Both the position numbers and the translations under genes were made by a program. This document shows, in pieces, positions 1,658 to 64,000 of a stretch of DNA of 64,000 bases. Position 1 is the stretch's first letter; each line of letters starts with the position of its first letter. The notes under the pieces are model-generated. The model saw nothing but the letters and a program-made list of their open reading frames with translations. It had not been told where the DNA came from and made no database searches. The DNA comes from Botryllus schlosseri (lineage: Eukaryota). The stretch spans positions 9,612,001 to 9,676,000 of the forward strand of contig CM119372.1 of assembly GCA_051294905.1 (NCBI GenBank), written 5' to 3'.

Positions 1658-2626
1658 CAGTGTTGGGATCAAGTCACTACCTTCGAGTCACGAGTCATTG
1701 CACGTTTTGACTTGAGTCAAGTCAAGTCAATCGATTTTCGAAGGTGACTCGAGTCAAGTCAAGTCAAGTCACTCGATTTTTATAGGTGACTCGAGTCAAG
1801 TCAAGTCACGAGTCAAGTCACAATTCAAGTCAAGTTGCCTTTTCGAATTATGAGGCATGATTATGTCATTGTATTTTGCTGACTGTCTGAAATACAGATT
1901 GAGTGATCATTTATTTTGAACCGATGAACGAGTATAATAGAGTTTAATATACACGGAAAAAGGGGCTGTATCGCTCACATATACGTAGAACTGCTAAACT
2001 ATGTAAGTAATTGCATAGCCTCAGTTTATAGTTACCAGTCAAAATAGAGAATAGAGAAACGAATTGATAAGATGCAATACATTACCCATTTACAAAACTG
2101 ACATGATACAATTCGAACCTGCGCTAATGGTTGAGGACTAATTAAACTAAATTCGAATTCAATTTCAATAAAACAAGAGGTTTGGTTAAGGTAATAACAT
2201 AGAACAGAAATATACATTTTGCTATTAAATTACTTTACTATACTAGTTTACGACAACGCAAGCTGTAAGCTTCGATCACTTCGTTTGCGGTCAATTTATT
2301 TGTGAGCGAACAATGGAGGCTCAGTAAAACACACGATCATTGAATTATAGAGACTGTAGGACCTACAGTCTCTATAATTGAATGATTGGTCGCTCTTACG
2401 GGTTACGCCAGCGTTTCGCGAACAATCCGAACACATGCAAGGTACAGTGATTTTAAACGATACCGATTTCTTGATGACTTGAAATTGACTCGTGAATTTT
2501 GCTCCGAGTCACGAGTCAATCCACATTTCTGATACGCCGAGTCAAGTAAAGTAAAGTCATTTTAGCAAAGTGACTCGAGTCAAGTCAAGTCATAGGGAAA
2601 AGGTGACTCGAGTCATCCCAACACTG
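1658..2626. mobile_element. Non-autonomous hAT element/MITE with GAGTCAAGTC subterminal repeats
   Basis: TIR CAGTGTTGGGAT...ATCCCAACACTG; perfect 8-bp TSD CTAAAACA (1650-1657, 2627-2634); arrays of (CAAGT)n/GAGTC at both ends. Confidence 0.93.
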
Positions 2627-3029
2627 CTAAAACATCGATAGCTGTCACAATCGCATTTGCATTGGCCTGGTGCGTACGATATCATCGCTGGCCTAACTAT
2701 CGCGTCTCGGGCTTAGCATGCTTTGGCTGCTTTCTCCCGGTGGCTTGGAGACAATGCCGTTAAGTATATGTTGATTAGCGATTGTGATTAAAAAGTGAAA
2801 TCGCGAAACTGAATGACATCGAATGTCCGTAAACATGTGCGACGCGTGCGTACAGTACATGCGTAATTGATTTTCGCTAATACTTAAACATAACCATCAG
2901 ATGTGTGTCAAGGCCTGAGTTGTAATAGGGGTTCAGGTTGGTTTGAACCACCTGAAATCGGCGACGTAGCACATATTCCATAAAAACTCGGAGAGTTACA
3001 CTTGCGCAAATCGTCGCCGAGGCTACGTA

Positions 3030-3460
3030 AGACGCGTTGACCTGTGGTGTACCCCAAGGCTCAGTACTTGGACCAGTCCTCTTCACCTTATATGTCAACG
3101 ACATTCTTGATACCTCATTGAACACCACACTGTTCGCTGATGATACTCACCACGTCTCTCTCCACCTTATATGTCAACGACATTCTTGATACCTCATTGA
3201 ACACCACACTGTTCGCTGATGATACTCACCACGTCTCTTCGACATCACAGCCCTGACTAGTGACGAAATGCCCGAAGTGCACCAGTAGACAACCCAAAAT
3301 AACCTTTGCATAAACGCCTCGAAATCCCAATTGCTGAAACTAAATTCAAAAAATAACCTAACCGTTAACATCGCTCGTCAGCCCGTTTCCAACACAAAAA
3401 ATGCCGAATATTTTGGGTTACTGGACCCGGACATGTCCTGGAAGAGTCATATTCAGTATT
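3030..3460 (+). mobile_element. Degenerate non-LTR retrotransposon (CR1/L2-group) reverse transcriptase fragment with internal 79-bp tandem duplication
   Basis: Translates TCGVPQGSVLGPVLFTLYVNDI...TLFADDT, then N.L.IN..KS and LDPDMSWKSHI with stops and frameshifts; 3084-3162 is repeated at 3163-3241. Confidence 0.88.
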
Positions 3461-3706
3461 CAGAGTATTTTGAAATAGTAGGATTTTGTTACTGACCAGC
3501 AAAGAAATATTTGTACAAGAGCACGAGACGAGACCCCCAGATACTCTGAACATTCCACCCACACAGCTTCGAACTCAAATACACAAAGTTGATTTTGTAA
3601 ACTTCCGAGGATCTTCATGTATTTCAAATCATTACCAAATATGACAAAAACATCATATCAAACTATTTTCGTAAATTTGTAAGACGCTACATCACAACCG
3701 ACTTCG

Positions 3707-5635
3707 TCAAGACTGTGCCTGTGCCGCCTGTTGCGCGAGCACCTTGTTCCCGGCTATAAAAGTGACGCTCCCCAGAAGAGCCAGGTACCGCAGAGTAGTG
3801 AACATATTCAGCTGCACCCAGAAGCAGTAGTAGAGAACGAATATGCCGACCAGACCGCCGTGGAAAACCAAATGCTTCGGCGAGAAGCTGATGTTGCCCA
3901 GATTCACTCCGATTCTCATCCACATGACAATCAGAATAAACAACGGCGCGATGCAAGCAATCGTGAAGACAGTCGACACAACCGCAGGCGGGCGTTTCTC
4001 AGATACGCGGAACAGATGGTGGATTTCTGGTCTCGGAGCGTATATGGATGCTGGTTCCTCGGCTGTCGTGGATCCCGCAAACGATAGCTTGATGTTGCAC
4101 ACATGCCAGAAAACTGGGTTTGCTATCGCGGCGTCTCCGATAATGAGGTGCACCGTGTATTCCCCACTTTGAGAGTTGAACGATTCTTTACCGGCAGCGC
4201 TGAGATCCACATCAAACTTGTAGACGGAGGAGCTGTCCGCCTCGGCCACAAATATAACCTCTTGGTTTGTTTTTACATTTTGGAACAGCACAAACACTTG
4301 GTGAGGCTTCATCGGCGTGTTGTCGATAGTATCTTTTACCTTGAATGTCATCACCACCTTCTGCTGCGAGTCTGCTTTCATGTTTGGTGCTTTGGCGGGG
4401 AAAGATATCTTTTGCCAGTCCACCGATGTAGACTCCTGCTCTTGAGTTCCGATTTGCGAGTCCAAAATCTCAATAGAGGTGGTGACTTTGACTCGAAATT
4501 CTACATCCGAAGCTCCGGCAAGCTTTCGTCCGCCGGTTGGTACTACGTTGAGCGTGATATCATAAAATCCGCTTTTGGGTTTCAAATCCCACATATTTAA
4601 ATCATATCCAGTCATGGCAGAACCAATGATTTTCTTCATCGGCACGTTCGATATGATTACTTCGTTGTCGGATGAGCGGGTGACCGAGTCTACTTTTACA
4701 GTGAGGCCATCAATGGGTTGGTGGAGTACATTAGTAACAGCAACTCTCAACGCACTCTTGTCTTGTGAAATAGCATTACCAGACAGCAGTTGCACTTTAC
4801 CGACAGACATAGCAGAGTAGGTAACAATCGCATTGAGCGGAGCAACAACATTGTATGCACCTTCGAAAGAAGTGGCCCCTTTGTGCTTCATAATGTAGTT
4901 GGCAAACATAATAACTTGATCATCGGACAGTCCGAGCGGGCGCTTTTTGGTCTTGGCAAGCTCAAAGGCAGCTCGAAGAAACATGGAAGTCGTCCGTAGA
5001 TCATTTTCGAAGTACAAATACTTCTCATCCACCTCATCCGCTTGTGCAGCTAAGTCCTCCACATCCAAAACTTTACCTAACAACGCTTTCAAACCTGGTC
5101 CATCTTCTAGGTGAGAGGCTAGAAGAATAGCTTGCGACGATGCAAGTACACTTTCGTCCTCATTCAATACGTTAGTGAGGTAAGTCAGAACATCGGCAGC
5201 AGGTATCTTTTTGCCAAGATTCTTAAGGACTGTGGTTGCATAATATAGAGTTTGAATATCGGCGCCGTCTACAATTTTCTTCGATACAGAGTCGATCACA
5301 GCAGCGGAGAATTGATGTTTGCATGATGCACCCAGGGCGTTTACCAAAGATGAGGCATAAAACATCGATTCTAAATTTTTAACATTAGCCGATTTCACAG
5401 CATCGCACGCAGCTTTGGACATTGACGACGAAAGAGCTCCGCCCTGGGTCAGTGCCTTTGAGCCGAGCACAGCATAGTAGGCGTTGGAGATATCTGAATA
5501 CGATGAAACCTCGAATATTTTTTTGATGTTCTGTTGATCGGTCGATGTGAGTACTCCCGACAAATGTACAGTGGCATTTGAATAGCAAACGAATAAACTC
5601 ACGAAGACTATGCAAAGTCTCTGCAGAACACTCAT
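3707..5635 (-). CDS. RPN2: Dolichyl-diphosphooligosaccharide-protein glycosyltransferase subunit 2 (ribophorin II), single coding exon, 642 aa
   Basis: N-terminal signal peptide; ribophorin II motifs PHQVFV, QEVIFVAE, SGEYTVHLIIGDA, PRPEIHHLFR..EKRPP; three C-terminal TM segments with FH.GL and LNMF.TL. Confidence 0.96.
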   Translation of the reverse strand: MSVLQRLCIVFVSLFVCYSNATVHLSGVLTSTDQQNIKKIFEVSSYSDISNAYYAVLGSKALTQGGALSSSMSKAACDAVKSANVKNLESMFYASSLVNALGASCKHQFSAAVIDSVSKKIVDGADIQTLYYATTVLKNLGKKIPAADVLTYLTNVLNEDESVLASSQAILLASHLEDGPGLKALLGKVLDVEDLAAQADEVDEKYLYFENDLRTTSMFLRAAFELAKTKKRPLGLSDDQVIMFANYIMKHKGATSFEGAYNVVAPLNAIVTYSAMSVGKVQLLSGNAISQDKSALRVAVTNVLHQPIDGLTVKVDSVTRSSDNEVIISNVPMKKIIGSAMTGYDLNMWDLKPKSGFYDITLNVVPTGGRKLAGASDVEFRVKVTTSIEILDSQIGTQEQESTSVDWQKISFPAKAPNMKADSQQKVVMTFKVKDTIDNTPMKPHQVFVLFQNVKTNQEVIFVAEADSSSVYKFDVDLSAAGKESFNSQSGEYTVHLIIGDAAIANPVFWHVCNIKLSFAGSTTAEEPASIYAPRPEIHHLFRVSEKRPPAVVSTVFTIACIAPLFILIVMWMRIGVNLGNISFSPKHLVFHGGLVGIFVLYYCFWVQLNMFTTLRYLALLGSVTFIAGNKVLAQQAAQAQS

Positions 5636-6309
5636 TATGAAACTGCTCCTGTGCCGATGCAGCTTCTGTGAGAATCTGCAACTTTAACTATCTTGCAAAG
5701 GCGACGAAACTCTTGCGGCAACTATACCAAACTGAGACCGGTGAATTAACGCGGAAATCGCAAGGCAAACGTAGTACGTGCGTGGCAAAGTGCAATCAAC
5801 CGCAACATTTACTTGGCTTCATAGTTCAGATTGGATTTTCTATCATGAACTTGGCGGTACAGAACTTCAACCATTCATATTGAAATGAACCTGAATATTT
5901 TCGGCTGACACTCGTCGGGACGACAGATTCCGTGTTGTCGGGAGAGGTCGTTCACACTTTCATTTGGATATTGCAGCGAACAACACATTCATATTCGCAA
6001 TTTATTAACCGTAACCTTTTCAACTGACACACATCGGGAGCAAGGGCGTAGCCAGAAAAAATTTGTGGGGGGGGGCGAAAAATTTGATGACGTAAATGAG
6101 CCCCTCCGATTCGGGAGCGGCCGTCAGTACTTTCATTTGGCTGCCATCTGGAGTCTATTTTACCAAAGTACGCCAACCAAGCCTGAGTCTATACAGATGG
6201 AGTTCATGTACCATCTAAAAATAGTACAATTTTAGCCCCGATTATTCGAATTTTATGCTCGTAACGTCACATTTTGTGATACGAATGTTGATATACAATA
6301 TTCTACTAG

Positions 6310-8309: not shown

Positions 8310-9057
8310 TTATTCACGATTTTCATTCGCACTATTCGCACCCCCTTCGTCATTCGCACTGCATTTCTTTTCATTCGCACTAGTGCGAACCGTCACACAG
8401 CTTGAAAAGCACTGGCCTAGGCGAAGTAAAGAAGAGGCATGCACAGTTGCACACTGAATGAAAAGTAATGCAGAGAATATAAGACGCAAGCGACAAAATG
8501 TGGTGGCATGTGGCATGTTAGGTCGTGGTCCGGTAATCCCGAAGGCTATGGCTAGTATTCATAGAAGAAATTGCTTGTATTTCGACTTGAATGTGGACAT
8601 GCTCAACGACTGTCGGATAGCCAGCGAGATGCTGTTCCACAATTGGGGTCCGGCATACTTGATAGAGCAATACGTTTTCTTGTATTCCGTCCTGATCATA
8701 TGGTAGTTGTTGTTCTTCGTTGACACGCGTGTGCTGTAGCCTACTTGTTCGCTTGTGACTCTGAGGTGAAGTAGTCGTGGCAATTTCTAGCTTCCTCATA
8801 TCTTCTATGTTTAGAACACCAAATCTTTTGAGAAGCGATTTGTCAGTTGCACATCCAGGCCCCCGCGGGGCTTTGGCGATAATGCGGATGTTCCGATGTT
8901 TAAGTTTTTGCAGTGGGTCAATCGTATTCTTGCAGGCAGCACCCCAACAAAGAATTCCGTACTGTAACTTTGATAGGAATAGAGTGTTGAAGAGTATCAA
9001 CAGCACACTGACTGGCAGAGTGTAGCCAAGGCGGCGAAACAGACCACATACCTTCAA
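8310..9057 (-). mobile_element. 5'-truncated LINE (CR1/L2-like) ORF2 C-terminal fragment and 3' end
   Basis: LF.TLFLSKLQYGILCWG...LQKL...IRII and, after a frameshift, YCSIKYAGPQLWNSI...IRQS.S.STFKSK are typical post-RT regions of CR1/L2 elements; TCATTCGCACT repeats at ~8324-8381 lie near its 3' end. Confidence 0.8.
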
Positions 9058-9859
9058 TAGTTGTGGTATGAGTGATTGCTGACGATATTCGGGTTCATTT
9101 CAATATGAATATACTATTCAATTGTCTCATGAAGTTGAAAATGGCCATAAAATAGTCGATGTTTAGGCTAATAAGTTTAAAGAAATAGGTTCGAATCATA
9201 TCATAGTCAACTGTCTTATTGGATGTATGTTCATGTTCATGAATGGCAATTTTCACTTCGTTGGAAGCTTAGATTAAGAAATCGGATTGGAAGTAGTCTA
9301 CTCAAGTAGTTTCCCCCAGTTGCAGTACTTACTCAAGTAAATCAAACTTTACGCTACTTATACTTGGTACCATTTTGAGATTTACTTGCTTTCCCAATTT
9401 ACAGTTGTCAAGTAGAGTGCTATTTATCGAATGTGAATACCTATATATGTTATTCCAATGAGAGCGAGACTGCATGAGACTGAAAAATGCAGGGAGTGTT
9501 TTCCCGGAGTAGGCCTATATACAACCAAAAGTTAAACAAAAAGCATTGGATCGCAGTCTTGTGTTGTTTTGAAATGATGAAACTATTACTAAACAAATTC
9601 TACTGAGAGTCCAGAGTTTTTGTAGCACTTCGCGCGAAAAAAGATATGGAGTGGCAAGTATTTTCGCGAAAGTATCGGGTTGGCTGCTTTTACATTGTCG
9701 CCCATATGATATATGTCTCATCAGAGTAAATATGGCTCAGCAAAAGGTCTGCAACTATCGTTTCTTCTTAACTGCGTGTCTTATAATACTGGGAGTGTGC
9801 GGCTAGAAGGAAAACAAAAGTTAAGAACCACTGTTCCATAACAAAACTGCCATTTGCAC

Positions 9860-21285: not shown

Positions 21286-24200
21286 ATGTTGATACGAATT
21301 TTATTTTACTTCTGCATCTGCTGGGAGTTATCATCGGGGATCACCTGTCTCGACTGTAAGCACGTTGTAGTGCAATGCAACGCCACGACTTGTCACGTAG
21401 TGGAATGCGAGCAGGTCGTGGATTGCCAGGGAAGCTGCGTGCTCAATTTGCAGTACCAAGGCCAGATTCCAAAAACGGGAATTGCGACATGTATGCCTGG
21501 GGTGAGAGGAGGAACTATTAAGTGTTCATGTTTTAACTTGGTGATATTGGCGCGCGGAAATTATGACCTACTTTTTACTTTCTCAGACGTTACATCTACT
21601 GGATAACTAGAGTACCAATGATGAATATTACTTTGATCCCCTTTACACTCTATAGGCCAGTGGTTCTTAACCTTTTTCTCCGGCGCCCCTTTCAAAAATT
21701 ATCATGCTCCAGCGCCCCCTCATATTGTAAGGACTGTAATAAAGACAATGGGTAAGAGGGAGGGTCGTAACATCACTTCGTCAGCCCCCCTAAAAAACGA
21801 TTGTCTAGCGCACCCATAGCGTGATGAACCAAACCTCGTGACGGCTTCGCCCCCAAGAACCCCAACAACAATCGGGTACGGTCTCATACCCCGTGGTTCG
21901 AATCATCCCGAATTCACATCAGCGATTGGCAATACGGGGAAATTAATGGTATTGGATTTTGTCTTAGTGCTTTGTGTAACTATAAGAAAGTCGACTGAGA
22001 ATGGGATGCATATATCTGCTCACATTGAATTTAGTACCGTATTAATTTCAACATGAATATTGAATGTATTCCAAGCAAAGCAACACATACTGTCTAACGT
22101 TCATGGGTTCATGTGAGGTTGTGAACCACAACACTGGATAGTATCATCCTTTACGATACGATGAAGAAATATTCTGACGATTTCATTTTGTAGCTCTCAA
22201 ATACATGAATATTTAGTTATTCATTTCGTGCACGAAGCTTCAAAACTTATTTTATGTACAAGGGGCTCTCACTCTCAAAAGTTATATACAAGTGCCTCCT
22301 TCGATTTTCACACGCTGTGCGCTGCGGGATATAAACATTTTGTTGAAAATGACGCTAGCAAGCGTGTCGGCATTGTTGTAACGGGAAATCGGCGGCCTAA
22401 AAGTACGCGGAATTCGTTTTACCTGAATTATAATAACCCATTACATATATCAAAACATATGTAGCAAATATCGTCGCGTAGCGCGACCAAAAATTTCGGG
22501 ATTTGACATGTTTTGTGGAATGTTTATTTGCTCTGAATACTTATTAAGGATATGTCCTACTACCACATCATCTATTGCGAAGCCATTTCTCCTCAGCGCC
22601 CCCCATATCGCCCGTTGGCGGGCGCTGGAGGCAAGGTTAAGAACCACTGCTATAGACGTACGGTGTGCAGTATGCATTGTGTTGCACTCTCGATTTGATG
22701 AATTCCTTGCATCGTGAACAGCGTGACTTTTCGTAGTGTATTTACTGTAACGAAAACCATCAATGAAATTCAGTTTTCTTTCATCGGTATGGTTACAATA
22801 ACGACGACAATAATAGATTGCCTTTCGACATCGCCGACGAACAGTCATAGTCAAACATGTCGCCCTCCACATCAAAGTAAGATAAATATATTTGGTTACC
22901 AGTCAGGTTGAAGGCCTACAATTGAAGTCACTTGACGCTTGCTGGGAAATGCCACATGCAAGCATTTACCGACTAGAAATAATAATATTATATCACCGAC
23001 AGTCTTGTGAGACGATCGATGTTTATGTCAGCAATATTCTGCATAAGACACGATTCGCGTGATGTCGTGATTAATGGTTAGTCATACATCTGTCTTGGAA
23101 TGTATTCAATATGTGTAAGTTAAACTGATTTTCAATATTTCCTCGCCGTTACCATATGTGTGGTCAATGGTCATAGGCTCATTTTGGTTGCTTCATAGCT
23201 TGGATATATTTTGCTGTGCAGTGTCTGCTTGTGCGGTATCAGACTGCTGGCCTCACAATCACATGGGCTTTCTAGTAGTTACAACGTCCAGAATTTCGTT
23301 ACGAACTAGCAACGGTGCCGGCGACTTGTCAATAAAATTTGATACTGAAAAACCCATAGGCCTACGTTAATAAGTTAGACAACACATGAGCTCAAGGGAA
23401 ATCTCACAAAGCGAGAAAAACATTTACAGATTACTCTGTCAAAAATGTTCATTGTTCATTGCTCATATGCAAAGTCAGCTTCTGCATATTTCGGCGACTT
23501 TTTGTCCACTCTCTTAGCCCACATGAACTTAGTTCAAACGCACCAGCAGATAATAGGCTCAGCTGGGAACCCATCCCGCGAGCCAATAATTCATTATGGG
23601 TGGGAAAATATCGATCTGCGGGCCGTGCTTCACGCGCAAGCCGCAGCCCGCACAAGTGCACAGTGCACCACACAACCTTGCTTCAAAGCATGTAGCCAGC
23701 TTTGGTTTCTCGCGACATTTACGGTGACACTTGAACGAACCTCGCTTATCGCCGTTTCATACCTGGGTTTCGAGGAGCACGGCTAATCGCCTTGCGTAAA
23801 GTCTGATTTCCTCGCGAGTGGCGATGCCTGCCTGGTTATACCGTACATTTTTGGAGGTAGTTTAATGTTCAACAACGTGTTTCAACGGCCAGCGTTTTGT
23901 TTCGCAGTTCAAAGCTCCGGCGGAGGATGTGCTCGATCAAAGAGAAATTGGTAATTTTTGCGTGCAAGCGAGGGACGCTATACACGATGACGAAGGGAAC
24001 TTGACAGTCTCGCACTGCATGTGCCAGAGTGACAGATGTAATTCCTTCATGATATTTTCTGAAGATGAGATCGAGGAAAAGCCAGAGGAAAAGCCTGCAG
24101 AAATAGAAGGTATAATAATATATATGAGACTCGTGCTTATCCCAGTATAGGCCTAACAATAGACTGAATAGTGAACACTGAGTAGTAGTCAAAGACATAC

Positions 24201-49365: not shown

Positions 49366-49759
49366 CAGTGGTTCCCAACGTGGGCGATATCGCACCCAGT
49401 AGGTGATTTTGAGAAACAAGGGGGCGAAAATACCAAGTTGGCGACCGGGGGGCGAAAATGTTAGAACGTCCAGTGAGATATATTTAATTAGCACGGCCCA
49501 AAACTACCAGTGAAGACGGCTTATTCTGAATATGATGCGAAAAACGGTCAACTCAACAGAAAGTAGACTCGGAAACAGATTTTCCCAGCACCTGCCACCT
49601 CTGAAAATTGTCTTTTTCAGTAAATTCATCAGCGATCAGAGTTAGGTGAAAAAATTCCCGATTATATGTCCTCTTTTTCGGACCCGTAAATATGAGGGGC
49701 GAAAATTTGAGTCGAGCTTGAGAAGGGGGCGATGAGTCGAAAAAGATTGGGAACCACTG
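49366..49759. mobile_element. Buster-type hAT MITE
   Basis: TIR CAGTGGTTCCCAA / TTGGGAACCACTG; TSD GTCAAGCC/GTCTAGCC (7/8); GGGGCGA subterminal motifs. Confidence 0.87.
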
Positions 49760-54654: not shown

Positions 54655-55126
54655 TAGGCTTACCATATTTCGGAAATGAAAAAAGAGGACACTTTTTCAG
54701 AAATTTCAGACAAGCAAAACTGGAGAAGAATTCTCAAAAACAGGTAAATTTCACCCGCTTCATGATCGGTTGACTAAAAAAAAAAAAAAAAAAAAAAAAG
54801 GTCATCACTTCCGCTCAGAGCTCAAAAACACGTTTTTCACTCCACATTGCTAGGTGGATGACTAAAAAAAAAAAAAAAAAAAAAAAAAGGTCTTCTTTTC
54901 GCTCAGAGCTGAAATCACCACTTTTCCCTCCGAAATACCCGCCGGAGCTTCACTTCTGCGCTAATTTGCGGCATATCACTCGCAATTTCCTCTAAATCTG
55001 ACCTAAATTTTCAAAAAAGAGGACAAAATCTCAAAAAAGAGGACAAAAGGGCGTCCTCCGAGGACACTTTCAAAAAAGTCAAAAAAGAGGACAAATCCTC
55101 TTAAAAGAGGACGTATGGTAAGCCTA
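54655..55126. mobile_element. hAT MITE with AAAAGAGGAC subterminal repeats and two internal poly(A) tracts
   Basis: TIR TAGGCTTACCATA / TATGGTAAGCCTA; perfect TSD ATCTTACC; related degenerate copies at ~27680-27972 and ~35120-35369. Confidence 0.92.
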
Positions 55127-56816
55127 ATCTTACCGGACTCACACGACAGGTCAGCCGTTATGTGGTATCGTTCTGTACTGCTAGTCCGTTCGTCGAATTA
55201 GCATGGCAAATAAAAGGACTGAACTCTTCGTAAGACATCCGAAAATCATTCATCACGAAATTGGGCGAAAGTCACGTGACTGTCGTTTCCTGTTCTATAT
55301 ATATTCCCGTAGGCGTAACTAGGGTGTGAACAAGGGGCGCGCTATAAGATCTGTGTTGTGCACGTTTACGTATAGCTAAAATTCCAGCCGGTGCGATCTG
55401 CGCATTCTTTCAATACTCAAATTCAAATGTATTCGGTAAGTAGAAACAAAACGGAATAGAGCATTCCCAATGCACGACTTTGGACAAGAACAAGAGCTAC
55501 GCTGCGCGTAAGAATTAAGAACAAACCAGCATTCCGATCTACGTGGAGCTTTTGACGCCGGTCACGAGACAGTCTCGTATAGCCGCGGAAGTAATCCGAT
55601 CATCTGACTTTTGCTTTTGCCACGTGGCAGTTTTTAAGAAGCCGAGTGTTAATATGTGATGATCTTCCTATTGTGCTCGTAACCATTCAATCTCTTCAGC
55701 GGAAGTACAGCAATTATACGCGATCACATGACAAAACTTCCTGTATAGTCTCTGTAGTACCGGTACTACGACAAGTGGAGAGCGCGAGTTACCGAACAAA
55801 ATTCCCCTCGTTTCAACTAACGACAAGACACCACTGCAGCAATTTCAGTATGTTTTCTATTAAAATCACATGCAGTTCAACGGTAGAAATACAAAAGATG
55901 TCACATTCAAGCCTGCATAACGGACTCATAATATATCATAGTGGAACATTTGAAATCCTATTAAAATCGTCGAGCACGGTTCATCCGCTTCGCTAACACC
56001 TTTACAGGTAAATTGCAGAGTAGAACGTAATTGACTTGGAACTGTCCAGCATCCCTTTTTAGTTTTAAATTTGTGAACACATCTGGGCCGTTGATCTTAA
56101 AGCCGTTCACCGAGATAAAGGGGTTAGCGACGCGGTCCAAGCGACGCGGTTACCAAGAACTTGAGTTCCATAAATTTAAACACATGAAGGCAGAGGTGAT
56201 CAAACAAATGCGATTAGATGTCGCGATTAGCATGATTCCATCATAGGAGCTAATCTCGAAGTTGCAACTGTAATATCCGCGTGCGATGTGTCATTAGCTG
56301 ATGAATATAGGTAAATTGCGGTTGTGAATAACTCGCGAATCACAAAAAAGATATAGAACCACTGCGTCAAGCCGACAAACACGGGGAGAGTTGGTGAATA
56401 GACCTAACGGCGTTGACTACGCATTTACCTGCAGCGCATTGTTGGTCTAGCGCGCGAATTCATCATAACCGCAGGCCATTGCCAAAAATTGAAATGTTCT
56501 GTCTTGCAAAGCAGAATATTGTAGATTGTACGACGTACACATAGGAAGTAAAACTACTTCGAGACAGCAACAGCACAAAATCAACATACGAAATCTATCT
56601 GGCTCTAAATATAGAAATTAGATATATTTGCACAGTATTTAAGCGCATAACGTAAATAAAGAAGTAGACAGCCCAGCAGAAAAGCATGGCACTTTGCTTG
56701 GAATTGAAAGAATCAACGGTATTAGCAGGTAATGCACCGACTATACCCTGCGTCGTCAGTACGAATTCGTAAATTCCCGCGAAAATGAATGTGACATCAC
56801 CAGCTGCATATCAGTT

Positions 56817-58078
56817 TCACGACTGCCGTAGCAGCCAATCGATACCCTTTTCGACCCCTTGCATATCAGAAACTACCACGTCCTGTACCCTCCACTGTCT
56901 GTCAGATACGTCGTGAAGGCCCAACATAGCGATGATTTGAAGCGTACTCAGCCTACTGGCGGCATCGTCGTGAACACAAGATAAAATGAGCAAAGGTCTC
57001 TTACTGTCAACATTCGAGGCGCCGATAGATTCGGAAGAATTTTCGGTGTTATTTTCCCGGTTCTCACCCTCTGCAGCATCGCCGCCTACCAGGGCCGAAT
57101 TTATGTTAGTATCGGGGACTGTTCCCTTCAAAATCGCGTCGAGTTCCAGTTTATTGCATACGATGTCTTCCCACTTTTGCCCTACGCTAGCATCCACCGT
57201 GTATATCAATTTGTAATTGCCTTTTCGTTCAGCGATATAAAAACGCACTGCCTCGTGTAAAGTCAAAACAGGCTCGGATTCAACATTATCGTCACGATCT
57301 GCCGGTTCGCGTACCAATTCCACCATGTTACTATTGCGCAATCTTTCCATGCCCGTTCTATTCTCGCGGACTCGATTATTGCCGGAATACATGGCGATCA
57401 AGTTGAACGATGTCTTTCCCTTGAAAACTACTTGCACGCCAGAGCCTATCCCGTCCCTGTTGCCGGGTAGCAGCCCCTTTGTTTCCAAAAATTCGTTACC
57501 CCACATTAAAGAACGGAATAACTTGCTTGTTCTGGGAGAATCTATGCCGGGTCCGGTGATGATTACTTCGCCCTGGCCGTTGTCATTACCAGGCCATATC
57601 GATTTAAGCAAACCGGGCAAGCCATACGCGGGATGGGATTCGTCAATATCGTCCTGTGCTCTTTGGTAAGAGGAATGGATATACAGAGCTTTATAGTTAA
57701 CTTCTTCTTTCCGTCGATTTTCCAAACTGCTTGATTTACCACATATTTCAGTCTCTGCAGAACATAAGCTGTCGTCGAGTGGAATCAAATCTGCGATATC
57801 GACACCATACCCAAGTTTACTGACTATGTCGCTGTTCCAAATTTTCGGTAAAAGCGGGTGGCTTTTGTTGGTCATGCTGCTCCATCGGCACATGTCTCTG
57901 ATTAGCAATTCACGCCATAATATTTGATCGTTGGACACATGGTGCCAGTGACTGTTTGCGAGCGACATGTTGCACACATCTCCCGTTTCGAGAAACGACA
58001 GAACCATAAGTTTGCAGTAGATTGGTAAAGAGTTCAGACTTGCAACACTGTCGTCGTCATCGTCGGCATCACTGGTTG
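56817..58078 (-). CDS. FBXO4: F-box only protein 4, large last coding exon (5' exon(s) not located)
   Basis: Acceptor TTACAG at 58079 opens ...SLNSLPIYCKLMVLSFL...W...DQILWR (F-box). The C-terminal GTPase-like substrate domain has GPG, DGIGSGV, FNLIAMYS, RPLLILSC, WRVQD and GIDWLL, as in FBXO4. Confidence 0.9.
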
Positions 58079-58302
58079 CTGTAACATAAACACGGGTTCA
58101 ATACAGGGGATTCATTAGAAGTCAAAATCTGGAAAACCCTAAGGAAAAACCTGACATATACGCTACAGTGGTTAGTAACAAACTTGGACAACTAGACAAT
58201 TCAAGTTGTCCAATTGGACTAACTAGAGCGAAATGCCGGTAACACTGGTCTACAAATTTCGAAAAGATTTTTGCGACACAAATTTTAATGATTGATATAG
58301 GC

Positions 58303-61199
58303 CAGTGGTTCTCAAGCTTTTTCACTGTGGGAGCCATTTTATGAACCTCAACTCTGTCGGGAGCCGCATGATGGCACGAATAACGTAATTTATTGAGAAT
58401 AGAAAAATATCATCAAAAATGGTATCAACGAAATGGTGTACGGCTAAAATAGCGACGGCCTTAATAGCGACGGCCAAAACACCGACTGGCCACAACAGCG
58501 ACGGCCATAACAGCGACGGCCAAAACCGCGATTGGCTCAAACAGCGACGGCCAAAACAAATACGACAATTTCCCCAGACGACACTGTGACAGCGGGCACT
58601 CCCCATACGGACAACTTCCGAAACGACGTTACCCAGCCACGTCCCTTCACCGATGGTATACCGAGGTATACCCTTCACCGTTGAAGCCGATTGCGGATGA
58701 TTTACAATTTACATTCTTCCAGATAGTAAATAGATAGTGATCACCACAGATTTAGCGTCACAACATGTTTATTGAGACTTAATCCACAATCTTTCTGAGT
58801 TCCGAGAGCATGTGAATTGAGTTTGGATGAACAAGGCGTGACGCTAAATCTGTGGTGATCACTATCTATTTTGCAACTTAGTGCGAAACTTGAAATTGAA
58901 TTTGATTTTTCACAAGTTTGTCATAACGAGGTTTCATCGTGGAGGAAGCTGTGCACAAGAGCTGTTTCAGATGACGATCAGTCAATCGGTTGCGATATTT
59001 GCTTTTGATCCTCACTAATTTGCTGAAAAGGGCTTCACATACATAGGTTGAACCGAACATGCAGGCATTCTTCGATGCGTTAGCTATCAGGTTGGGGTAT
59101 TTTTCTTCAGGAACAGCACCCCAAAATTCAAGGAGTCCATTGCTTTGAAACAACAGTCGCAATTCTATATCGGACTGCAAGTCCAGCAGTTCCATCTGAA
59201 AAATATCAGGGGCAGTGGCGGCATCTACTGCCATTGGGTTTGAAAATATATTCATCAGGGGTACGGAATGATGCATTCCCTCTATTCGACGTTTAAACCC
59301 GTCAATCAAGGTACTAATAACCTGGTCATATGTTTTGAATGATCCATTCTGTCGGTGGTTTGAAAGCGTTACAAAATGTGTCGTAACACCCTCCTCTAGG
59401 TGCTTTCTCCAAAGACACAATTTCTCAATGAAACCAGACACTGTCCCGTACCAGGCGTGACAGAGCTTGTTATTTCCTTGTAAGTTCCGATTTAGTGACG
59501 ACAGGTGTGAGGTAATATCCACCATGAACGCCAAGTCAGCAACCCAGTGTTCGTTTCCCAACTGAGGGATGTCTTTCTTTCCTTCGACAAATATTTTAAT
59601 CTCAGGAAGTAGCGCGTAAAATCTTTTGAGGCATGCAGCTCGGCTTAGCCATCGTACAGCGGTGAACATGATCAAGTCTCCATGGTCAGCATCAATATCG
59701 GTGAGAAAAGCCTTGAATTTTCGATGGTTAAGTGCGTTTGCTCGAATCCAATTTACGGTCGATATTACTATATCTGTCACATTGGACATCTTTAATGATT
59801 TAGCAACAAGACTTTCCTGGTGTATAATGCAGTGTTGCCAAGTCACAGCGTCAAGATTCTGTTCAGCACGCCATTTGTTGACGAGTCCTTGAAGACCTAG
59901 ATTTTTGCCGAGCATTGCTGGGCAGCCATCTGTCGCCAATGAATATAATTTCGATGGGTCTAAATGCGCTTCTTGAAGAGTAGCATGAAATTCACGAAAC
60001 ATGTCGGTTCCCTTCGTTGTGCCATGAATAGATCGCAAAGTAAGAAACTCCTCGCAAATCTTGAAATCTGGCATGACTCCCCGGATGAATACAGCTAATT
60101 GCTCTATGTCGGTAATGTCGTTAGTGCTGTCAAGAGCAAGCGAGTAGTAAGAAAAATCTTGCGACTTGTGAATAAGTTGCTCATGCAGATCTTGGGATAT
60201 GCAATCGACACGACGCGTTACTGTATCATTGCTAAGCTGCAATTTTTTAGCTTTCTGCTGAATGGCAGGAGAACAATTGTCTTCGGTAAACAAAACAATA
60301 GCCTGCTTCGTAATTTCGCCATCAGAATATGGCTTCATATTGCTGGCCAATAGATGACTGATCTTATATGATGTTATTGTTACCTCTTCGGGTTCTTTTT
60401 TTTTTAAAAACATTTTTCCTTGTTTGCTACGCTCTGCTTTCAGACATTCTAACTTCCGTTTCCTTGATTCACCTTGATAGACGTCGTATTTTCCCGCATG
60501 TGTTTTATAATGCCTCTTAACGTTGAAAGATTTTACACCGTTTATTATTATAGGGCACAGAAGGCATTTCGCTTTGCCGTTTTCCTCAATTTGAAAATAC
60601 GCCTCTTCCCATTCACTTTGAAAGGCCCGATTTTCTTGCACAAGGGCTACGAGATTTCTTTGCAGGTTGATCTGAACCTGACATTATCATCGAACCAAAG
60701 TCTCCGATATTTTCTAACGCTATCAAGATCAAAGCAAAGAGTAAGAAAATAAAGTACCTGCAGTTACCCCAAACGTTGATTGTCTTATTGACCGAGTCTC
60801 TTGTCACCCGTATTCTAATATGAGCCGCCGTCTCGAGCGAAATAAACTTCGCCCGTCTCATTACAGACACCTGATTAGGCTTAGGTCAGACGGTCAGAGC
60901 CTTCAGTAAAGCAGTAAAGGTTCGGATTTAAAGCCTACCGAAATTACTATCGGTAATGTTACGTCACAACCCGTACAACTTGTATTACGTAGGATTCTAT
61001 TGTGATCAGGGAATGACCTTCGCGTCAGTAAACGTGAACATAAACGTACATTTGTTGTGTTGAAGGCGCGATTTATTTATGATCATGAATAATTAGAATT
61101 TCCGTAGAAGCATCAATGATTTCACATCGTTAGTGAGAGCCGCACGGAGAGCAGTCGAGAGCCGCATGCGGCTCGGAGAGCCGCGGTTGAGAATCACTG
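58303..61199 (-). mobile_element. Full-length hAT transposon, Buster/SPIN (GTF2IRD2/ZBED5-like) clade, 2897 bp
   Basis: TIRs CAGTGGTTCTCAA / TTGAGAATCACTG; perfect TSD ATATAGGC (58295-58302, 61200-61207); GAGCCGCA subterminal repeats at both ends; one transposase ORF. Confidence 0.96.
58878..60641 (-). CDS. hAT transposase (Buster/SPIN-like), 587 aa, apparently intact
   Basis: BED-like zinc finger (CLLC...RHYKTH); catalytic LALD, ATDG and STYVCE; CIIH (CxxH); VRWLS; C-terminal hATC region (FS...IKSKYRNRLTD). Confidence 0.94.
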   Translation of the reverse strand: MQENRAFQSEWEEAYFQIEENGKAKCLLCPIIINGVKSFNVKRHYKTHAGKYDVYQGESRKRKLECLKAERSKQGKMFLKKKEPEEVTITSYKISHLLASNMKPYSDGEITKQAIVLFTEDNCSPAIQQKAKKLQLSNDTVTRRVDCISQDLHEQLIHKSQDFSYYSLALDSTNDITDIEQLAVFIRGVMPDFKICEEFLTLRSIHGTTKGTDMFREFHATLQEAHLDPSKLYSLATDGCPAMLGKNLGLQGLVNKWRAEQNLDAVTWQHCIIHQESLVAKSLKMSNVTDIVISTVNWIRANALNHRKFKAFLTDIDADHGDLIMFTAVRWLSRAACLKRFYALLPEIKIFVEGKKDIPQLGNEHWVADLAFMVDITSHLSSLNRNLQGNNKLCHAWYGTVSGFIEKLCLWRKHLEEGVTTHFVTLSNHRQNGSFKTYDQVISTLIDGFKRRIEGMHHSVPLMNIFSNPMAVDAATAPDIFQMELLDLQSDIELRLLFQSNGLLEFWGAVPEEKYPNLIANASKNACMFGSTYVCEALFSKLVRIKSKYRNRLTDRHLKQLLCTASSTMKPRYDKLVKNQIQFQVSH

Positions 61200-62899
61200 A
61201 TATAGGCTATTTTAAGGTTGGTGAATCCGAATTTGTGCTCGGAATTTCTTCAGCACGTCAGATTTTTTCCGTATGAATTTTTCTCATTTTCAGAATTTAA
61301 TCAAATTTCGGCATTCGTTAGTGACATCACGGTAAGCATACAACAGCAACAGATCAAATATTGTTACTGAGATCATCTATAATGATGAAACCTGGGTCGT
61401 TGTAGAACAAAATAACTGAGTTGTCGGTGAACTTGAATCCAGTGGTTCTCTATTTTCTTTCAATCAGGACCTCTATTCCACCCATAAATTTATACGTGGA
61501 TGCAATTATTTATATACGGTAGCAGTTATCATCTTTATATACCACTCTTCGTTTAGAGATTGCGATTATTAGCTCCGTACCTAATTTAGTTCCATACGTT
61601 ATCTATCTTTGTACATCCGTCCTGCAGACTTAATCTGCCAATGCATTTTGTGACAGCACACTGCTATGTGGCCCTTTAAGCTTGTTTTAAAACATTAGAA
61701 GAAACAGGCTGTCTGCTTTTCCAAAGAAAAAGGTGCTTATCATGATAACTTGGGAAGAATTTATCATCATTAATCTCCACCTGCACTTATCATCTTCTAC
61801 AGTTTCCATATATTGTCACATATTAACGGAATCGAGGAAAGCTGTTTCTGAACTGTTTTTCTTTTGGTTTATTGCCATGATGTAAAGGGCTTCTTTTGAA
61901 TTGTCTATTATAGACAACCAGATGAAAGGAGACTACTTACTAACAGTAACAGCTCAACACGAAACCTGAAGTGCGTGTTACTTCACAATAGAAATAATTA
62001 TGCATCGGTTCTAGGAAAGTCGATCCCTATTGACATGTGACATTCTGTGACCTACACCAAATACCACGTGTTCTACGCTGGAACAGAGCCACAGAGATTA
62101 GCATTGGATAATTTCGAGGCTTTTATTTAGTGTTTTGCATGATTAAACACCAGTTTTAAATACAAAAAGCTTCACATTTTGGGTGGTTTCTGATTTGCTG
62201 TAATATTTTACTACGAACCGGAGTCCGAAGTGATCAGCGTTGCTACTCAAATAGCACAAGTAACGCCTTACATTTCTACTCAATTAGAAGCAGAAGTAGT
62301 CCTTTCTAAGGCATGTCAAAACTACTTCAAGTAGAAGATGAAATGAAAGGTCTGAGAATTACTAAAAGTCATTAAATGTCTAAGTAGGCTTGGTCGGGGG
62401 GAGGGTGGTCACATACTTTAAACAGTTTGTCGGAGGTGGCTACTTACGAAATCGTAAGATGTACCGCCGCATATAGCGCAAAATGACTATAATGACACTA
62501 CCCAAGGGTAAAATCCTCGAAAAAGATATACTCAGTTACCGTGATTCAGAGGCTATTTTACGCGTTTCTTATGGCAATTTAACTCATGATAGTGGTGCAA
62601 TATTATCCCTGAACTACTTTCTACTTTACAAAAACCCAATTGCAAAAGTAATTAGTTCATCCAGAATACTGTTCAGGTAGATGTTGAAGTAGTTGTAAAA
62701 CATTGCCATATTAGTAAGTACTGCAAGTAGCCAAAATCTACTCGAGTACTTCGAGAAAGTAGAAATATTCCACATATATAATATCTCAAAAACGTGACGT
62801 GATGGAGTAAAAATAACGTCAGATTCGTATTCAGCGCCCCCAAATCAGGTATAATTGACTCAAAGAAGTCCTGGTGCAAAAATCGTGTAGACCAGTGTA

Positions 62900-63680
62900 A
62901 TCTAATTCTAATCTAATTTTTGAGTTATGTTTTTATGCTCTAATTTCAATTCTAATCTAATCTAATTCAGGAAATGTTTTTATGCACTAATTTTTATTCG
63001 AAAATAATTTGTGAAATATTTTTATGTTATAATTTTAATTCTAATCTAATTTATGGATTTCATGAAGACTACAGGAGAACAGCATACTGCGAAACGAGCC
63101 AAGATTGGTGTACATGAGGGGCGGGCAACTTCTCCAGTCGGTGAGCCAGATATAGGAAAATTAAGCACTTGGCGGGCTGGATTCCCAAATTGATCTATTC
63201 ATTGATACATTGATACACCCTCACCCTATATAAGGAATAAGTCGTATCGGGGCCAACGGTCTACAGCCCCCGGCGTATATAATGTGAATTTGAAAACACG
63301 ACGCCCAAAACAGTATTTAATGAATTTGTTAACTGAATATACTTCAATAGCTGTCAAAGTCAATGAGATCTGTATTCTGTGGTCAATCAAAGTTGTCAGG
63401 CCGCTTAAAACCCCTTTGCGGGCTGTTTCCGGCCCATCGCCCCTGGTTTACAGAATACAGAGAAAGACATTTGTCCCATGCTTATAAGAATCAACTCTTA
63501 TCTGATGTAAACCGAACTCAACTCAATTCAGAAGTTTACCGAATTCAGTAATTCTAATTCTAGTCAAATTTGGAAATAACTTTGAGGATTATAGCTATAA
63601 TAATGCTAATTCTAGTCTAATTTCAAAAAGTATGTGTGTATTGTCGGGACTCGGGAGTCACTATAATTCTAATTTGGAAA
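62900..63680. repeat. AATTCTAATCT-type low-complexity repeats interrupted by a CAGGGGCGGGCAAC-family MITE fragment (~63117-63400)
   Basis: Arrays at ~62900-63052 and ~63540-63675; GAGGGGCGGGCAACTT at ~63117 with similarity to the reverse of the 9860 family. Confidence 0.6.
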
Positions 63681-64000
63681 AGCTGGGAATTTTATAGTTG
63701 TCCAACTAGTAAATTGACTACCACCATAGAAGTTTCATATATGAAATTCACTGTCACGGATATGAATTTTCAGTAGAGTTAGGAGATGTATCGATGCTTC
63801 CCATGGCAGTGAGTTTGTGTCTACAATGCGTATAATAATTCTTTCAATTCTTGGCAGAAGAGTGGTAATTAGCAATGAGACCCATGACATGATATAATAT
63901 AGAACACAATTCCTTCACTGACCGTGCAGCTGTAGAAAAGGTGAAAATTTAAGAGGGTGCTCCAAAATATACCTCAGGATGTTACGCTAAATTTAAGAAA

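Follow-up and report, generated by a model that had tools for sequence, protein, structure and literature searches.

A full-length but probably disabled Buster-like hAT transposon upstream of the main exon of an FBXO4-like gene in Botryllus schlosseri, and the young multi-copy family to which it belongs

Introduction

Transposases of the hAT superfamily bind the terminal inverted repeats (TIRs) and subterminal repeats of their element via a BED finger, excise it and insert it, leaving an 8-bp target site duplication (TSD). Young Buster families are common in animals, membership of SPIN in the strict sense means near-identity to the vertebrate SPIN transposase, and Hermes represents the Ac family of hAT, with a different target preference.

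In the available text of PMC3517528, hAT elements are described by an 8-bp TSD, short TIRs and a length of <4 kb, and GTF2IRD2-like proteins are placed with Buster; the Buster TSD consensus is nnnTAnnn (PMC3499496 and PMC3517528, available text). The native Busters (TcBuster, AnBT, HvBT and LlBT) are, according to the available part of PMC12637253, 2.5-3.0 kb long, with one ORF of 597-677 aa, TIRs of 14-16 bp and young, high-identity copies, and two of five similar young Buster candidates showed minimal activity in cells. The accessible content of the three supplements of that study holds no ascidian names, and a literature search of mostly open-access sources, with repeat libraries outside its scope, retrieved no description of the family treated here. 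A large hAT-Charlie load in B. schlosseri has already been reported (PMC5882950, available part).

Here we describe a Buster-like element from a 64,000-nt stretch of the B. schlosseri genome (the window; GC content near 41%). We consider it fairly probable that the element entered the first intron of an FBXO4-like gene recently, as a full-length copy of a Buster hAT family that is young and multi-copy, and that a one-base insertion has disabled it.

Results and Discussion

Structure and boundaries of the element

The element occupies positions 58303-61199 (2,897 bp; Table 1). The flanking copies of ATATAGGC match at 8/8 positions, an agreement with a computed chance of about 2e-5 at the given ends, and their TA centre fits, for this one site, the Buster consensus. 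The TIRs (13 bp, one mismatch) are of the CAG...TCAAC type and agree with the 14-16 bp expected of the Buster family, and the length below 4 kb, the 8-bp TSD and the short TIRs are those of the hAT superfamily. The perfect TSD and the single TIR mismatch of the initial annotation were thereby reproduced. The mismatch is ancestral, since the related element L001 has the same TIR asymmetry, and decay was rejected as its cause. L001 (positions 2225-5929 of its own sequence) is 3.7 kb long and retains both TIRs and a 7/8 TSD with TA at positions 4-5, but is decayed, with several frameshifts and internal insertions.

Table 1. Coordinates of the element, its flanks and the adjacent FBXO4-like exon (window numbering).
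Feature	Position	Strand	Remarks
FBXO4-like host gene, main exon (F-box)	56817..58078	-	
Left TSD, ATATAGGC	58295..58302	none	TA at 4-5
TIR, 3' end of the element	58303..58318	+	15/16 bases identical to one SPINon TIR, by-eye comparison
Candidate BED-binding repeats, subterminal GGCTC/GCGGCTC	58331..58367	-	L001 has one of these motifs at the corresponding end
15-bp tandem repeat, 7.8 copies, 3' UTR	58440..58558	none	Family feature, not private to this copy
144-bp palindrome, 71-nt arms	58728..58871	none	Starts 7 nt past the stop codon
Transposase CDS past the frameshift: BED finger, DDE core, insertion domain, hAT dimerisation domain	58878..60644	-	
A10 tract, sense strand	60396..60405	-	RNA reads heap just upstream
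Frameshift site: single additional base relative to the family version, next to a substitution	60647..60649	-	Contigs, RNA reads, P0001, L001
Likely start codons, ATG 60690 and 60684	60682..60690	-	Relatives begin at the second; frame stops at 60615-60613
Candidate 38-nt 5' UTR intron or cryptic acceptor (AG ending 60720)	60720..60757	-	Sequence alone
5' TIR and subterminal GCGGCTC repeats	61140..61199	-	First 14 nt the same in L001
Right TSD, ATATAGGC	61200..61207	none	

An unbroken contig of sequencing run X1 (56044-58325) spans the left junction with 0 differences from the window; hence a chimeric assembly does not explain the insertion. The terminal sequence at 61140-61199 is common also to other abundant elements. 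High-depth variants at positions 61175 and 61190, and internal sequence that differs past 61159 in run X7, suggest the existence of non-autonomous relatives with a common 5' end.

No second copy of the Buster element was found in the 64-kb window. Two shorter elements were noted there: a 992-bp non-autonomous hAT-like element (21658-22649) with CAGTGGTTCTTAACC ends and a 7/8 TSD (CTATAGGC/CTATAGAC; TA at 4-5), and a 394-bp hAT MITE (49366-49759) with CAGTGGTTCCCAA ends and a 7/8 TSD (GTCAAGCC/GTCTAGCC). Abundant repeats form a dense mosaic at 61290-63700, where a solitary hAT-type end lies at 61440, and positions 55001-55126 hold an extremely abundant short repeat (mean depth of about 307,000 in X1, bin 55001-55300), which is also present in RNA reads. 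Two further minus-strand frames resemble what we take to be a MADF-type DNA-binding protein (111-1087) and, presumably, a LINE reverse-transcriptase fragment (8518-9099).

Relationship to described elements

The initial classification of the element as a Buster/SPIN-like hAT is supported by the nnnTAnnn TSD, the SPIN-like TIRs, and the BED and DDE features. Compared by eye with SPIN/SPINon, the TIRs match at 15/16 and 13/16 positions (PMC12637253, available part of Table S2), the transposases are of similar length (about 602 aa versus 601-603 aa here), and a Spin-doc-type zinc finger gives a weak match below the cut-off. The first catalytic motif is LALDS, whereas it is LALDES in most relatives; damage was ruled out as its origin, the motif being common to the whole clade described below. 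Among the 120 matches listed, in which SPIN itself bears no label, the best named vertebrate proteins are 36-40% identical and none exceeds 40%, so the element is not a SPIN in the strict sense; for SPINon itself the sequence comparison covers the TIRs. The element resembles the native Busters in its length, single ORF, TIRs and young, high-identity copies, but differs from them in its ascidian host and in a 3' UTR that contains the 144-bp palindrome and the 15-bp repeat.

The closest proteins are GTF2IRD2-like transposases of Ciona savignyi and Clavelina lepadiformis, which share 69-70% identity with the Botryllus family as well as the LALDS motif, and are 81-90% identical to each other. In a quick tree of 74 of the database hits, the Botryllus family is the earliest branch of a clade with these two ascidians (SH-aLRT 99), sister to Tachypleus; this tree consists of database hits alone, without labelled Buster, Ac or Tip references or an outgroup, its careful topology search being unfinished.

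The transposase frame and its frameshift

A stop-free frame of 601 codons extends from 60683 to 58878 on the minus strand. It contains the BED finger (C2H2; C99/C102/H117/H121), D244/D311/E609, the CxxH motif, W404 (numbering of the Logan protein P0001) and the C-terminal hAT dimerisation domain; the hAT domain set (DDE, BED finger, CxxH, W and dimerisation) is present in the family version, and each of its residues was also located in the window frame. The uninterrupted transposase claimed by the initial annotation therefore holds for the motifs, which lie in one stop-free frame, but not for the gene, which carries an additional base at 60647 and lacks an in-frame ATG ahead of the BED finger. 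The first in-frame ATG (60413) is located past the entire finger; translation from the ATG at 60690 or 60684 would follow a different frame and terminate after 25 or 23 codons, respectively. As assembled, the window copy lacks a start codon from which the full transposase could be read in frame, and it cannot be called intact, as it had been; the family version is in frame.

Relative to the family version, the window carries one additional base at 60647 and differs by substitution at both 60649 and 60691. Four of the 24 listed runs were examined at these positions. In all three contig runs (X1, X6 and X7) the base at 60647 is absent and both 60649 and 60691 are changed; in RNA run X23, about 3% of which was read, 39/39 reads lack the extra base, 39/39 show the change at 60649 and 17/18 that at 60691. 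Hence the window state of 60647-60691 is absent from the examined contigs and RNA reads, except possibly for 1 of 18 reads at 60691. P0001 carries an ATG-started N-terminus in frame and is otherwise identical to the window frame except at residue 479 (587/588 residues downstream of the frameshift). Since L001 (about 60% amino-acid identity) is also without the base at 60647, the extra base is the derived state. A 660-aa form of P0001, starting at ATG 60861, was rejected as the true protein: its first 57 residues have low pLDDT, relatives start at M60, and its hydrophobic stretch derives from a pyrimidine tract.

The near-absence of the window version from contigs and RNA reads also leaves room for an error made locally when the repeat was assembled or polished, the copy being intact in the animal. 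We regard this as unlikely, although it deserves serious weight: the three differences fall within 45 nt, the remaining ~2,850 nt being free of them (for two independent events, such clustering has a probability of about 3%), and no listed contig of X1, the run that matches the flanks, has the window version. However, the X1 flanks show 0 differences over 4,089 nt (4 contigs), so assembly error is rare here, homopolymer slippage does not account for the changes at 60647-60691, and contigs would lose a variant confined to one of ~40 copies, so that its absence from them is expected. Setting the flank agreement and this expected loss against the tight clustering, we favour, with appreciable doubt, a real mutation at 60647 over a local error.

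If the one-base insertion is real, the copy would have acquired it near codon 12 after inserting, and would make only a peptide of 23-25 residues or a BED-less product of 511 residues. The N-terminal 78 residues of Hermes, including the BED domain, are indispensable in vivo (bioRxiv 2022.09.16.508221, available part), and for this reason, by analogy, the BED-less product from 60413 is unlikely to transpose. The frameshifted copy would be non-autonomous and, having intact ends, could move in trans via intact copies.

The AlphaFold model of P0001 has a pLDDT of 84.5, and its best structural match is Hermes (E 2.6e-10), but the two are only 13-15% identical; a sequence search of the PDB gave no meaningful match (best E 0.23).

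Copy number, transcription and mobility of the family

In X1, the element contigs have depths of 689-693 and the flank contigs of 15-20, a ratio of about 35-46, which is a rough figure, contig depth being distinct from copy number. A single contig, at depth 691, covers the ORF in this run, and in three runs of three studies the ORF collapses to one contig of the same sequence, although contigs drop rare variants and the uniformity of the family may be overstated. In 20 of the 24 listed runs, from 10 studies, 0.80-0.89 of the query words are present, about the share of the query contributed by the element, and in X6 one contig passes from the end of the element into flanking sequence other than that of the window.

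RNA reads of X23 accumulate to a depth of 45.8 at 60401-60700; their strand is that of a second pile (depth 28) at the 3' end of FBXO4. Because these reads sit directly upstream of the A10 tract, they are likely to result from internal oligo-dT priming or early polyadenylation; most of the RNA signal lies upstream of this tract, and read-through from host genes could supply it.

An intact ORF, both ends and transcription were all found for the family (P0001, contigs and RNA reads). It is young, uniform, multi-copy and transcribed, and dozens of near-identical copies appear intact. The perfect TSD, the intact ends and the near-identical multi-copy depth bear out the recent insertion proposed initially, while the proposed new active transposase is to be sought in the family, which is in frame and transcribed, rather than in the frameshifted window copy. 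The family transposase is a fair candidate for activity, and the family is probably still mobile. Working like those of TcBuster and SPINon, its transposase would bind the TIRs and subterminal repeats by the BED finger, excise the element and insert it at nnnTAnnn, leaving the 8-bp duplication.

The initial annotation had named a domesticated, fixed single copy as one outcome that would overturn it. A single-copy transposase gene of GTF2IRD2/ZBED type, maintained by host selection, might be suspected from database relatives named 'GTF2IRD2-like' and from the low dN/dS (about 0.16 versus L001 over 392 codons, with a dS of 1.75, near saturation). Neither a single copy nor loss of the TIRs was found: the TIRs and TSD are intact, the depth is about 40 times that of the flanks, X6 has a different flank and the window copy is frameshifted. 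The intact ends and the multi-copy depth in effect exclude domestication, to which we give almost no credence.

Position relative to the FBXO4-like gene

The element and the FBXO4-like exon are both on the minus strand, and the putative acceptor AG (58080-58079) lies 224 nt from the element end, in accordance with the same orientation and the distance of ~225 bp noted initially. The FBXO4-like protein is 55% identical to that of Styela clava and 35-36% to that of Ciona intestinalis. Its relatives carry about 80 conserved FBXO4 N-terminal residues; no N-terminal exon was found in the six frames of the window (tblastn) or by HMM (best E 1.6). Since no window frame encodes this conserved N-terminus, exon 1 is probably located past position 64000 and the element probably lies in an FBXO4 intron, as had been suspected. 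A local first exon ending in ATGTCAG/GT near 58150 is phase-compatible, and was rejected as unable to supply about 80 conserved residues. The C-terminus of the FBXO4-like protein (56817-57000, minus strand) gives a weak Arf small-GTPase-like match (22.1 bits; cut-off 22.3), and the same match is precomputed for some relatives.

Among the 15 of 328 joints displayed, there was neither an FBXO4-element joint nor an empty site, and hence no sign of the disturbed splicing or chimeric transcripts suggested initially; X23 carries other FBXO4 alleles and may therefore be without this insertion. The 60720 acceptor is pyrimidine-rich and has the same phase as the FBXO4 acceptor. Splicing to it would enter the transposase frame, and the window copy would then end after about 34 codons. 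There is, in our view, a slim chance that this cryptic acceptor captures the upstream exon of FBXO4 and joins it, in the same reading frame, to the start of the transposase, the frameshift truncating the fusion at ~34 codons.

Untranslated regions

The contigs of X1, X6 and X7 covering 58303-58757 show 0 differences from the window. A repeat-rich segment of the 3' UTR (58427-58690) is family-wide, absent from L001 and possibly a captured fragment of another element. The palindrome, also absent from the short 3' UTR of L001, has a predicted fold of -77 kcal/mol (z -13; 0/200 shuffles). An Rfam search over the element gave 2 matches of miRNA-hairpin type, both far below the gathering score and explained by the palindrome. 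The palindrome is fixed in the family; it is a speculation that each full transcript would thereby contain a dsRNA stretch, which could serve as a source for small-RNA silencing. Sense-strand AATAAA sites are present at 58773 and 58394.

Horizontal transfer

The initial annotation suggested a comparison with distant marine taxa for anomalously high identity. None was found, the nearest named non-ascidians (Tachypleus and Octopus) being about 54% identical, and a scan of viral contigs yielded 52 pattern matches and 0 relatives.

Six runs under three other organism labels (B, C and D) contain 0.83-0.84 of the query words, and X6 has no contig for FBXO4 but covers the element at depth 11.5, as might follow from a very recent transfer of an identical element into other organisms. 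However, the two of these six runs that were examined (X6 and X7, from the labels other than D) also carry host repeats in which the X1 variants recur, and X7 carries the host FBXO4 3' flank at depth 2, a pattern that fits mixed samples with a small amount of host DNA. Recent cross-phylum transfer was not found, both examined runs containing host DNA, and we hold it to be very improbable.

Between ascidian orders, the transposase is 70% identical to that of Clavelina and to a cluster with C. savignyi proteins, those two being 86% identical. For comparison, RPN2 (ribophorin II), used as a control gene, is 62% identical to its Styela, 47% to its Phallusia and 42% to its Clavelina counterpart, with 56% between Clavelina and Phallusia. 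Together with the FBXO4-like identities, these values point to a stolidobranch, styelid-like host, and the GC content of the window agrees with Botryllus or Botrylloides (PMC5882950, available part). In the window, RPN2 occupies 3707-5683 (minus strand) in one uninterrupted, apparently intronless frame. The 70% identity of the transposase versus 42-47% for RPN2 suggests an older transfer among ascidian orders, in a comparison that uses two control genes, a different phlebobranch comparator, unnamed ENA members and protein identity in place of dS. The wider proposal, that the family is transposing now and that horizontal transfer has spread its clade across all three ascidian orders (70-86% identity for the transposase versus 42-56% for RPN2), is tentative, and we consider it possible rather than probable.

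Conclusions

The locus as such is ordinary, and its value lies in the family. It also illustrates that a long stop-free frame does not equal an intact gene. With some 40 near-identical copies and a transposase that is intact and transcribed, the family is a ready candidate for a transposition assay and a possible native tool for transgenesis or mutagenesis in ascidians, and the clade is a lead for horizontal transfer among ascidian orders. If present-day transposition and such transfer were both true, the family would represent a native active Buster of a chordate invertebrate and a case of transfer among fouling ascidians.
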